Shown: in pieces, positions 3,129-60,825 of the stretch
Position numbering within the stretch: the stretch's first letter is position 1
How the letters are laid out: each line of letters opens with the position of its first letter
The notes under the pieces: generated by a model
Told to the model about the DNA's origin: nothing
Databases searched by the model: none
Seen by the model: the letters and a program-made list of their open reading frames with translations, nothing else
Assembly (NCBI GenBank): GCA_951406725.2
Contig: OX597836.1
Span: forward strand, 36,456,001 to 36,520,000
Reading direction: 5' to 3'
Source of the DNA: Octopus vulgaris
Taxonomy: Eukaryota
Length of the DNA stretch: 64,000 nt
Program-made: the position numbers and the translations under genes

Positions 3129-3404
3129 ATAATTTGTCGTCTAAATGTAGCGATAGTCTCTATCCCCTTTATTTCTACAGCTTGCATTAAAATAAACACT
3201 GTTGGTTTACATTTTTTTTTATCTCTGTTTACTCAACTGCGTTGCGCTGGGCAAAATATATATCAGATCAAACACATCTATTTGAAAGGATCTCTTTAAA
3301 GATGTATAATTAATAATATGCTACTAACAAATTTAAGTAATATTTGTGAGAAGTACATTAGTTAGGAGGCGCAATGGCCATGAAAGGGTTTCAATATTTC
3401 TGAA
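3129..3404 (+). repeat. Left arm of ~275-bp inverted duplication (partner 5434-5708)
   Basis: Reverse complement aligns along its full length with 5434-5708. Confidence 0.9.
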
Positions 3405-6490: not shown

Positions 6491-7315
6491 ATAATTTCTA
6501 GCTTACACATAATGAAAAATAATGTAACGTGGAATTGTTGTTCTAATGGTTATCTGACCATTCAAAATAAGGTTATTTGTGACGAAATGTAATAAAAGAA
6601 TGCTTTATATTTATCAACAAGAAATCTGCTTCAATATCTGGTAAAGTTTGATCGCAGCAATGTTTGGTTGCTAGTTTTAGAGAACGAGAGCCTGGTTTGC
6701 TTCGGTAGAAATATCTTGCACTTACTAACTCTAGCGGACCAACATTATTCATTTATTGTACTATGAACTTTACTGTCCAAGATATATCTTGCACCTCTGT
6801 TGTTCTGTTCTCAGTGAAGCATACATTTTACATCTGAAATATATTTTATTATCAAATGAAGAAATAATTCATACAAAAACTCTACCAGATACAAGACTAA
6901 TACATTGTATAAATTTCTTGCATCCTATTTATCCGCTTTGAATCAATTATTCAAATCTGTAAATCGTATTGTAAGCATTACATAGAAAATCGAAGTTGCC
7001 ACCTTCACCTCCCACACCATTTAGACGCGATTGAAGACACTTAAAGTATATTTCAGTTGATAAAATCTCAAAGACGCTCTCTGACTTATATTGAAATGGA
7101 GTTATTAAATTTCACGCAGCGTTGCACCTAAAAGATCTCTTTTGTGATCAAAGATGTGTACACATACACAAGTACAACAATCGCGCGTACACAAACGCAC
7201 ACACGCACACATACACACCCACGCCAGCACACACACGCATATATATATATATAAATACATAGAGAGAATTAAACAGATACACGTACATATACACATATGC
7301 TCTCGTGTTTCTATA

Positions 7316-7349
<34 letters not shown>

Positions 7350-7533
7350 CGTCCGCGTGCGTGTGGGTTATCATAGTGAGATACATATATACATGCTTAC
7401 ATACATACAAACGCACCCTATATATAGCTTCTAGAATATTGCCGTATTAATTGGGTCTGCCGCAACGTTATTAGGAATCATTATTACCAGGTATACATAA
7501 CAAGGAGATACACACACACATAGGAGCTTGTAA

Positions 7534-32097: not shown

Positions 32098-32135
32098 TCT
32101 TTCTGTTGAAGAGCGTAGGCTCGAAACGTAAAAGA
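32098..32135 (+). ncRNA. Minimal hammerhead-like motif with U6 core (family H2) in element ~32020-32232
   Basis: ucuuu-CUGUUGA-a-gagc guag gcuc-GAAA-cg-UA-aaaga. Confidence 0.6.
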
Positions 32136-32238: not shown

Positions 32239-32291
<53 letters not shown>

Positions 32292-32303
32292 GCAGCACGA
32301 ATC

Positions 32304-32354
32304 TTTGTCAATGAACAGGTCGCGGTCTCAAAGCGACGAAAATATTTCGACAAA
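32304..32354 (+). ncRNA. Degenerate copy of G3-C8 hammerhead family (H3) in element ~32292-32495
   Basis: uuuguca-AUGAACA-g-gucgc...gcgac-GAAA-auau-UU-cgacaaa. Homologous to 59635-59685. Confidence 0.55.
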
Positions 32355-32859
32355 TTAAATCTAAATGTTGAAGTGAATCTAACGGTTTTGTGTGTTTCTT
32401 AAATGGCTTATAAACACTTTCCACGCTGCAATTGTTTTCGTTCCAGCACACGATCTTAGATCAAGTCATTTGTTATGCAAGTACATCTCCGTAATATATA
32501 TATATATCTGTACATATATCTTTGTATACCTATCAGTATGTCATGTTAACTTTGTATTTCTGTAATCAAGTGCAGTTATATATTTTAGGTACATGAGTTG
32601 ATGTAACCGTCTACTTTACTAGCTTGGAGACATTCCAATGAATACAACCATTCATTTACTAAATAATAACACAATACCATGAGACATGTATCTATAAACC
32701 ATTTGCAATAAAATACGTAGTCATGTTGTGTATATTTCTATTCAACAATTTCATATTTATTTGGACATTAATTGATGAAAAGAAATAAAAAGCAATGTAT
32801 GGCATTTGCACAAATATTTAGATGTGTGGAGAGCGAAATTACATATGAAGTTTTCAGAT

Positions 32860-33045: not shown

Positions 33046-33227
33046 TTATACATACATACATATATATACATATACATACATATATATAAATACATATATA
33101 TATACATATTTACATATATATATATACATAAATACACACACATATATGTGTGTGTATATACATATACATATATGAATATATATATATATATATATACACA
33201 TACACATATATATATATATACATATAT
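32860..33227. repeat. (TA)n/(TACA)n microsatellite
   Basis: Direct inspection. Confidence 0.95.
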
Positions 33228-35555
33228 GCAGCACGAAGCTTTGTCAGTGAACATATATATATTCCTCCTGCCATCTTTCTTCTATATATATCCAGCATTC
33301 TTCTACTTGTTTGATTGTTTTCGTCATAAACCTAATGTAGAATATTACAAAATTTCTAACTGACGAAAATACATTAAAGAACATATTTCTGTTTTAAATA
33401 AACAACTCAGTTAAAAACAAACTTCTCTTTATTACACACAATAAATATTGATTCGTTTTAACTATATAGAATCTGAAATTTAATAGTGATGCTACTATTC
33501 CCATTTCAGTCAAAAGCATGTACTTATTTTCTCGACCGTGGAGAATATTACACTAACACAATCCGAACAGAGATGTTATACTGAAGTTATATATGTGTAG
33601 CTCAGTTTCGATTCCTTTGTCTATAGCCTAGTGTAAATAATGTACTAGTGGGGACATAATATTAACAATGATGTCGTATATGGTGCGTTCAGATTGTTGG
33701 TAGGGCATATGATTTCCAAAAACTCCCTTGTGTTTAGCTTATCAATATTTGCTTTATCTTTCTTGCTGACTTCATTTCCTAGTCTACCGATCACCACCAG
33801 ATGATTCTAGGACATCGTACCTTGTGGGTCCACTCTTTGTCTCTTTACCAAACGTCCTAAGACCCAGTCAACCTAATTAAGTATCTCCGATTCAAGCGCT
33901 AACAAACTCCATCGTATTTTGTCATTATATGAGGTTATAAAAGTCACAAAACTAATACATTCAAACAATAATAACTTGTACCATTTTGTTGTGCATTATT
34001 AGACAATTTCAGTAGATAATTTTGCTGCCAGAAATTTATTGACCCAATTATTGGTATGTTGAGAAAAAAATATAAAATCTGTAATTGTTTCCCAAGTTTG
34101 AATTCACTCTAAATCTAGTTTGCTAGCTGATATCCTGTCACGGGTGATATTCTACTTTGTATCCAGTGTATCCAGAATGCTATATGAACTCAAACACACG
34201 ATTCAGAATACATATCACAACGCAGCTTATTCCATGTTCTAACAACTCAGCTAAGTCCACACTTCAGACTGGGGCTACATTTACTAAAACAGAAAATATA
34301 CGGTACATTTGTCTTCGGAAGGATGTAACTGTAGAATTCAAAGGCTTACTAGAACAAATACAGCGAGGAATTTATCTATAGTTCTAAAAGTTCTGCCTAA
34401 TCAACAAAAGTTAAATGCACAATCATAATGAAACTATGTATTCAAACATTTGATTCTTTCAAGTTACTTGACATTTTACTATGATATATATTAGAAATAA
34501 TTAAATATATACAATATAATGAGAGTAATTTTGGGAAATGTTTAAATATTCGACTGAATGTGTGGTTGTTCCGAATCTATATATGGCAGGTTCTGTAGAA
34601 TGCAACATTAATTCGCATCCTATGATAGACTAAACTGACATTAAACTGAAGATGTTAATGGAAGTAGGAGTTATAATCTACATTTGTAGACATTAAGCGA
34701 TGTAAGAAATGATTTCAGAAGCGACATAGCGTGATATTGAAATGTGCATAACTACAAAATCATGGTAATTTTATTGTTGATGTTTAGTGAGAGGTGAACT
34801 ATCAGACACGATTTATGTTTAAATGTGTTAGTTAATGTGCAGAAAATGAAATATGGCTGTTGTACTGACAGTAAATCTTGCATTTCTCTTGCGAAATAGT
34901 CTTCGTTGAGGTCATTACGAAATTAATGCGCTAATCCTTTCGATTTTTTCCCAAGTTCACTTTCAGACGTAGCTGGATATTTACATAAGAAATCAAAATT
35001 TCGAAGCAGTCGCTAACAGCATTAAAATGGACAGTTTAATTCTAGAATAACATTATCGATCAAAATATAAAATGTATATTTCACGAAACAGGTTTTTTCA
35101 GATAAATCATATGCGTCTGTAATTTCCGGCATGTTAATGTTAGCGTTATTCATCCGCACAGAATTTCTCTTATAAATCACGCCCCCACACTTATGAGGAG
35201 AGTTTTGTCTACAGTTACAGTTCATTATCCTACTACATCAGCCACACCTAATGACTTTCCCATCTGTCTTATAAAGTATGCCGTTATTAAAATTTCACTT
35301 TCAGATTGGGAGATGTTAATAAAATAAGATTAAACCTGACAATAGAGAAGCGGAAATATTACTCTAGTTTGAAAACATTTTTATCTATCTTATTATTAGA
35401 TATAAAGATATTGGACGCCGTTATTACAACCAGTAGCCGTTATTACAAAACGAAATAAATATAATAACCTCACAAAACCCATTAACCTGGTCCCTTTATT
35501 TTATCACTTAGGCCGGCAAAATAACGACAGTTGGTTGCATATCATAAAAAAGCAA

Positions 35556-42258: not shown

Positions 42259-42462
42259 ATATATATATATATATATGTATGCGTGTGTGTGTGTGTGTGT
42301 ATGTGTGTGTGTGTGTGTATACAACTTATAAACAAGGGCCAAAGAAAAAAATTCTAGTGCCAAATATGCCGAAACTAGACACATTGTCCATAGCCATATA
42401 ATTTATCATAATAAAGACGTTACTCGAAGAAAGTCGACAGAATCTTCTAAAAAATTCCGTTA

Positions 42463-42523
42463 TTACCATATCGGACCCGATTTCAGAGTTAGTTCATAAG
42501 AACCTTCCCTTCATCAGTGATAA
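42463..42523 (-). ncRNA. Type I hammerhead ribozyme motif, canonical core, all three stems formed (element ~42322-42735)
   Basis: Minus: uuauca-CUGAUGA-agggaagguuc uuau gaacuaacucu-GAAA-ucgg gu ccga-UA-ugguaa. Confidence 0.8.
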
Positions 42524-59313: not shown

Positions 59314-59634
59314 GAATAGATAGTCGTGGAAAATGCTGAAAAGCTATTCTTACCAGATTATGTTGCGAACTCAATAACTGAATTTAAGTATGAACCAGAC
59401 GAAGGAGTTACCTTCGAGGTGGACTATAGAAGATATGAACAAATCTTCATTAAAAAGTGCAAAGACTAGGACTCCCCAACAGAAACGTCTGATATAAACT
59501 TTAAAAATAAAATAGACATATTGTGTAAAAAGTGTTTGTTTATAATTTTACAATTTTTGAAGCGTGGAAGGTGTTTATAAGCCATTTAAGAAACACACAA
59601 AAACCGTTAGATTCACTTTAACATTTAAATTTAA

Positions 59635-59685
59635 TTTGTCAAAATATTTTCGTCGCTTTGTGACCGCGACCTGTTCACTGACAAA
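59635..59685 (-). ncRNA. Type I hammerhead fold with G3-C8 swapped core (family H3) in element ~59555-59698
   Basis: Minus: uuuguca-GUGAACA-g-gucgc ggucacaaa gcgac-GAAA-auau-UU-ugacaaa. Confidence 0.7.
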
Positions 59686-60825
59686 ACTTCGTGCTGCATC
59701 TATAAGTTTTTATAATTTTTATAATCTCTTTTATATTTTTTTTTTCTTCATTGGTGTTATGTCTCGCTTCTCTTTCCACAACAGCTTTTTTTTTTTTTCA
59801 ATTTGGCTGGAATCATTCTCTCTACCGCCATCCTCAGAATAGGTCAATAGTTAAGCTGAGCTTAAAGAATGAATTCATTTAGCAGTGCAGGGTTATAACT
59901 CAAAAAAATGTTTGAAAATGTATTTCGCAACATTTATGCTAGTTTTGTAATTTGCAGGAATAGAGAGGGAGATAAAAGTTAATATGATCAATAAAGTTTT
60001 CACGTAAGATTTCTAAATCTCTTTGTTTTCGTATCATCTTAAATTAATAAACATAAAATTCTGCCCGATTTCATTGAAGTAGATAGTTAATTCTGGGACG
60101 CCCTGTATCTTAATGGAGGGCCATATATCTGAACCACATTGAAGAGATTTCTCTTGTTTTTAAGTGCTTGCCGAAATTAATTGCACTCTTAATGTGCACC
60201 TTTGAAAACATGAAAGGCACTTTGTTTCGTTATGTGTTATCGAGCCAATGGTGAGTGGAGAGATTATGTTTAATCACTGAGTTGATTGACGGTGTATGCC
60301 TGAATTTCGGGTCAAAATGCATAGAATAATTAAAGAAAAACAATGTTTTGTGCCTAATGACACCCATGGTGTAGAAACAGCTACGAGAATAGGAAGCTGA
60401 GATGAAGCACGAACAATAGAAAAATAAGAGAAGCCTTTAGAATCGCGTGGTGTTGAGGCATAAGAATGACTTGACAGGAGAAGCTATAATTTGCAAACTG
60501 TGTATGATGTGGTAATGGTATTGTTATTACAGGCATAATGCTAGGGCGGTTATCCAAGAAATTTAGCTGAAGATCCTAACAATGATTGTATTTTAAACAG
60601 AATTCTGGAGACATTGACGCATTCTATAATACGTTGAAGTAGGCTGGCAATATGATGGGTCTCTTGTTGTGAGAAGAATGAGAGATAATGTCGCAACATG
60701 TTAACAATCGTGCGAAACAAACATAGGACAATGTGTTGAATGATTAATTGAATTCCACATAGCATGATGTCAAATTACTCCAGCATTATGATATGAACAG
60801 CCATTTACAGGTATAATTTAAGAAC

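Follow-up and report, generated by a model that had tools for sequence, protein, structure and literature searches.

A compensated G3-C8 core in the hammerhead motifs of a Penelope-like retroelement family of Octopus vulgaris

Does a hammerhead motif that departs from the consensus at two paired core positions reflect the decay of one copy, or a compensated core that a whole family of elements has kept? The question is raised by positions 59635-59685 of a 64,000-nt stretch of Octopus vulgaris DNA (assembly GCA_951406725.2, contig OX597836.1, positions 36,456,001 to 36,520,000 of the forward strand; hereafter, the window). In an initial annotation, this site had been described as a natural hammerhead with core nucleotides 3 and 8 exchanged, the exchange being fixed in a multicopy family and taken to imply selection on the catalytic fold.

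The sequence, its predicted fold and a descriptor search all identify a type I minimal hammerhead motif with a G3-C8 core on the minus strand (59635..59685). Stem I has 7 bp (59685-59679 with 59641-59635) and is followed by core positions 3-9, which read GUGAACA (59672..59678; G3 is 59678 and C8 is 59673). Stem II has 5 bp, including G10.1-C11.1 (59670-59666 with 59656-59652), and forms, with a 9-nt loop II, the part of the motif that varies between subfamilies (59652..59670). The sequence GAA (59651-59649), a palindromic helix III, AAUAUU (59648-59643), and U17 (59642) complete the motif, helix III and U17 together occupying 59642..59648. From hammerhead numbering, the cut site is predicted between 59642 and 59641. 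All of the parts listed in the initial annotation (the stems, the GUGAACA core, the palindrome and the U site) are thus present; missing from that list is an unpaired G (59671) between A9 and G10.1. The nucleotides U4, G5, A6, A9, G12, A13 and A14 and the A15.1-U16.1 pair are all present and are also the majority letters of the family. Only C3 and G8 of the CUGANGA consensus are replaced, by a G and a C that are themselves Watson-Crick complementary. The cleavage triplet, UUU, fits the NUH rule for hammerheads (PMC8495972).

A descriptor that accepts any Watson-Crick pair at positions 3 and 8 matched the real window once and none of 60 shuffled windows. The 51-mer folds better than expected (z = -2.9; 1 of 200 shuffles was as good), whereas the fold is not significant in two longer sequence contexts (z = -0.6 and -1.5). 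Stems I and II are both contained in the minimum-energy fold of the 51-mer, with the junction open at stem I. Helix III exists only as a palindrome and does not form in the monomer, in which a G3·U17 pair extending stem I has a probability of 0.67 and A15.1-U16.1 one of 0.0002; helix III between two molecules contributes only -0.2 kcal/mol. An Rfam search of a 201-nt stretch containing the motif gave three chance matches and no hammerhead match up to an E value of 10; for the whole window, the 150 matches listed of 272 were all to microRNAs and driven by microsatellites. Thus, the expectation that standard searches would miss the exchanged core was borne out. Elsewhere in the window, at about 42460-42517 (minus strand), the sequence loosely matches CUGAUGA...GAAA, with stems I and II of 6 and 4 bp, which may be due to chance.

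The hammerhead sits in the terminal repeat (pLTR) of a Penelope-like retroelement (PLE) with reverse transcriptase (RT) and GIY-YIG domains, as was found by searching the 2.8-Gb genome (227 contigs). The copy in the window is a solo, truncated pLTR with the hammerhead in its 5' UTR (59557..59701, minus strand), in which a start codon (59585-59583) is followed by about nine codons of the open reading frame. This fragment belongs to a repeat of about 200 nt, the copies of which share a 5' junction, end sharply on the 3' side, lie between (TA)n flanks and often have an inverted partner. In longer copies, the upstream part carries an acceptor-like sequence, microsatellites and then a GIY-YIG endonuclease, and the downstream part runs into the reading frame. 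Full elements are found at two loci, L209 and L206. The former has a pLTR-ORF-pLTR layout, with a hammerhead at 3242, a start codon at 3334, RT and GIY-YIG domains ending near 6532, another hammerhead at 7503 and, upstream, a copy of the endonuclease in inverted orientation; inversions and the sharp 3' end recur in many copies. The hammerhead thus lies in the 5' UTR, about 55 nt ahead of the start of the reading frame. Open frames of 600-796 amino acids span both domains, although none of the three translations begun at the start codon was free of stops. The Pfam match to GIY-YIG is above the cut-off (E 3.4e-5), while that to RVT_1 is weak and below it (E 0.011). A C-x3-C-x2-C linker precedes the endonuclease. 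The 113 homologous proteins found included none with a useful name, and the RT tree contained no named reference elements. The repeat was rejected as a retrozyme or satellite because its copies lie scattered, show inversions, share a defined 3' end and are part of an RT-GIY-YIG element.

A branch-point, a pyrimidine tract and an AG precede helix I by 15-16 nt, and short copies begin there. A search ahead of the short copies revealed neither a shared exon nor a splice junction; the AG junction is as compatible with a transcription start as with a 5' UTR intron. Many short copies (for example, L039-L068) start with a G before the acceptor-like AG, with 95 exact matches genome-wide, and this extra G might represent a very short first exon or, alternatively, derive from the cap where transcription starts. 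Contig C16 holds 41 of 50 matches to the upstream pLTR pattern; long, acceptor-retaining copies (L108-L128 and L159-L178) are clustered there, including a sublineage with G3·G8 (see below), a pattern suggestive of transposition from a single source to nearby sites on the same chromosome.

Two further copies of the same pLTR lie on the plus strand of the window. One reaches the usual 3' end of the family (32290..32494) and carries a decayed hammerhead (32304-32354) that has A3 and, as previously noted, keeps C8; the closing pair of its stem I is also broken. The other is a stub within a (TA)n tract (33226..33253), ending at A9 (33253). About 100 nt from the copy at 59557..59701 lies a 44-codon fragment (59320-59451, plus strand), which we take to resemble the N-terminal gag region of Ty3/Gypsy elements.

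Exact patterns in which positions 3 and 8 were left free recovered 6,024 copies in the genome, 5,534 of them (91.9%) with G3-C8. G3 is present in 5,858 copies, in 324 of which position 8 is not C, and is replaced in 166; the first 100 of these 166 listed comprise 63 with A3, 27 with U3 and 10 with C3, and none of this 100 has C3-G8. A sample independent of the motif was drawn with a downstream 24-mer anchor (6,513 matches), the first 100 places of which, all on contig C1, gave 97 distinct copies. Among the copies of this sample that cover the respective positions, G3 occurs in 60 of 63 and C8 in 66 of 72. In eight of the 97 (L240, L273, L276, L277, L282, L293, L306 and L313) an identical inverted junction cuts into the hammerhead core, the mark of a rearranged derivative that lacks the core and went on to be amplified. 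Four sequencing runs labelled as four organisms, one of which may be the source of this DNA, gave the same core in the best-supported rows of a loose-end consensus (78 other rows were present), and the differences listed within the motif fall in loop II. The genome-wide state is therefore G3 and C8, and the claim that a multicopy family has fixed the exchange holds. These counts also rule out the exchange as private decay of one copy.

The initial annotation had further given as established that positions 3 and 8 pair in the active fold and that engineered G3-C8 mutants are partly active. Both points agree with the literature: the pair is reported to hold the catalytic nucleotide 8 in position (PMC8495972), and the C3G/G8C double mutant of the hammerhead of a Poseidon PLE (PAc) partly restores cleavage, single mutants at 3 or 8 being dead (PMC11167929). 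Whether the exchange is compensatory can be judged from relatives. Metagenome contigs scanned with the RT alignment yielded 14 related loci, mostly of 40-50% protein identity, and 11 of these were parsed downstream of the reading frame (L325, L328 and L330 were left out) with a hammerhead parser that is blind to positions 3, 7, 8 and 9 and that fired in 10 of 3,300 shuffles. A hammerhead was found at the same place in six of the 11, with C3-G8 in four (L320, L321, L322 and L326) and U3-A8 in two (L319 and L327). No hammerhead was found in the other five (L323, L324, L329, L331 and L332), for which short contigs may be the explanation. With the octopus family included, three types of pair thus occur at 3-8 in one clade, all of them Watson-Crick, and it is on this covariation that the compensatory reading rests. 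Four of the six relatives also have U17. Core defects were seen in the hammerhead of L319 at 2497 (A9C, together with U3-A8) and in that of L321 at 4973 (U15.1-A16.1). The RT tree does not settle which relative is nearest to the family. G3-C8 has probably taken the place of C3-G8, or else of U3-A8, as the ancestral pair, and its origin is a single evolutionary event.

Copy number is not evidence of selection, since the copies descend from few source elements; the evidence has to come from comparisons between subfamilies and with relatives. Subfamilies A (39 copies) and B (41 copies) were split by a site outside the motif. Their majority letters differ at none of 40 stem and core positions, at 5 of 8 loop II positions and at 4 of 52 other positions of the 5' UTR. 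Between two groups of reading-frame segments set by identity thresholds (41 and 17 segments), 55 of 222 fourfold-degenerate sites (25%) differ, and at that rate 0 of 40 has a probability of 1e-5. Stem and core compared with loop II plus the rest of the UTR gave a Fisher p value of 0.01. Subfamily B is the youngest, with end branches near 0, and has G3-C8 in all 14 of its rows with a hammerhead. The fold is therefore likely under selection, as far as sequence comparison goes; since conservation extends to the remainder of the 5' UTR, overlapping signals may supply part of the constraint. The selection proposed in the initial annotation thus stands for the fold, on the strength of subfamilies and relatives. 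It does not stand on fixation, given the few sources, nor does it extend to catalysis as the property selected.

Several results weigh against cleavage being essential. None of the 97 copies of the anchor sample from contig C1 starts at the predicted cut site; 45 begin at the 5' junction of the pLTR, and 58 span the whole motif. A G3·G8 variant, the same state as the inactive C3G single mutant, is present in 126 exact copies (44 of the first 100 listed are on contig C16), and the different 3' flanks of these copies in the loci examined indicate new insertions. Among the first 100 listed of the 324 copies with G3 and no C8, G8 is found in 42 as against A8 in 16. The G3·G8 sublineage lies inside subfamily A, within which the tree is unsettled; a role for it as the ancestral intermediate is unsupported, C8 being present in subfamily B and in other members of A. 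In addition, a second Penelope family in this genome, with GIY-YIG upstream, has the core CUGUUGA, in which the A6U change is uncompensated. It is represented in the window at 32098-32135 (plus strand) and further at loci L333-L344, has 5,168 exact copies and carries U6 in 98 of the first 100 listed.

The reading that we favour, as a probable one held with some reserve, is that of a slow, conditional hammerhead, likely assisted by dimer formation or by protein, in which G3-C8 substitutes for C3-G8 and for which cleavage is predicted. Two copies of the palindromic helix III, either in the two pLTRs of one read-through transcript or in two RNAs, would pair and so build the active core, the protein of the element being an alternative source of help. 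G3-C8 would then place the 2'-OH of nucleotide 8 as C3-G8 does. With U17 in place of C17, the only competitor would be the G3·U17 wobble and not a G3-C17 pair. A minority of transcripts would be cut after U17, and most insertion templates would remain uncut. The U17 common to four of the six relatives may have eased the exchange by avoiding a G3-C17 mispair; the suggestion draws on a remark, given as 'data not shown', that C17 leaves an engineered G3-C8 core less active than G17 does (PMC3884650). A slow and conditional reaction matches the one PLE studied in vitro, Poseidon, in which cleavage needs the protein of the element and insertion mostly uses uncut RNA as its template (PMC11167929), as well as the minimal PLE hammerheads, the activity of which is weak and confined to dimers and trimers (PMC4209133).

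The results that weigh against essential cleavage would also suit a fold kept for a non-catalytic job, such as binding of the RT-endonuclease protein, positioning of the template or service as part of an internal promoter or of the 5' UTR, with cutting now too slow to be of consequence. Insertions run across the site without a cut, G3·G8 copies are still inserted and A6U is fixed in the second family. Furthermore, hammerhead mutants of another PLE were without effect on insertion in vitro (PMC11167929), and roles besides cleavage have been allowed for by Cervera and de la Pena (PMC4209133). We nevertheless regard this explanation as unlikely, since the 3-8 pair serves to position the catalytic nucleotide 8 (PMC8495972) and its Watson-Crick state in three letter combinations across the clade is what catalysis predicts. 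Drift of a dispensable ribozyme, in which two chance complementary transversions arose in a source element and were then amplified, is more improbable again. The mismatched G3·G8 state is competent for transposition and would leave the intermediate open to drift, core defects do occur in the relatives and in the second family, and G3-C8 arose only once; against this, the subfamilies differ at no stem or core position despite 25% fourfold divergence, the only two core changes land exactly on a known pair, and the youngest subfamily keeps C8. Least credible of all, and scarcely to be entertained, is efficient cleavage, by which most transcripts would be cut and the 5' end of the transposition template set. 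The long and perfect stems I and II would suit it, but no copy in the anchor sample starts at the cut site, the monomer lacks a stable helix III and engineered G3-C8 rescues only partly.

Beyond the slow, conditional hammerhead favoured here, it is possible, though we hold it doubtful, that Penelope-like elements in this genome were selected for deliberately slowed hammerheads, by G3-C8 with U17 in one family and by A6U in the other. If so, the fold would be kept while most transcripts stayed whole for reverse transcription, and cutting would be switched on only by dimer formation or by the protein of the element. In that case, G3-C8 would also be the first example from nature in which the catalytic pair is inverted to purine-pyrimidine, and it would have arisen via a mismatch state competent for transposition, like the one that persists in this genome. 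The finding itself changes no mechanism, the pair and its exchangeability being known from structures and mutants. It does extend the range of sequences known in nature for the best-studied small ribozyme, and about 6,000 motifs in one genome are missed by CUGANGA-based searches and by Rfam as run here. A natural series is also available for testing (C3-G8 and U3-A8 relatives, G3-C8, G3·G8 and the A6U second family), which bears on whether Penelope hammerheads need to cut, and how fast.

Hammerheads in the pLTRs of PLEs were already known (PMC4209133). A term search of the accessible text on a repeat annotation of a common-octopus genome (PMC13282606) found no mention of hammerheads or ribozymes. 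For G3-C8, only engineered mutants were found in print, in a literature of which the part on PLE variants is incompletely covered; an earlier natural example is possible.

The host element resembles Neptune-type PLEs (Craig et al., 2021, PMC8557442) in its RT with a C-terminal GIY-YIG domain, its C-x3-C-x2-C linker, its inverted 5' copies and its insertion at (TA)n. Similarly, the motif shares with the minimal hammerheads of metazoan PLEs its place in the pLTR, G10.1-C11.1, a palindromic helix III and the extra nucleotide between 9 and 10.1 that is characteristic of these minimal motifs in Penelope elements (Cervera and de la Pena, 2014, PMC4209133), and the splice-acceptor-like sequence just upstream of helix I recalls Penelope of D. 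virilis (PMC4209133). It differs from them in its G3-C8 core, theirs being CUGANGA, with U3-A8 as the sole core covariation stated in the accessible text (PMC4209133). Natural U3-A8 hammerheads have been reported by Perreault et al. (2011, PMC3088659) and in Cercyon elements (PMC4209133), and these likewise represent a compensated change at 3-8 in nature. However, U3-A8 keeps the pyrimidine-purine order and can arise by two transitions, whereas G3-C8 inverts that order by transversions that pass through a mismatch. The same swap is found in the engineered C3G/G8C mutants (PMC11167929; reviewed in PMC8495972), with partial rescue, in one case in a PLE hammerhead. Those mutants were made in the laboratory, whereas here G3-C8 occurs in nature, as the prevailing state of a family of some 6,000 copies, and is combined with U17.
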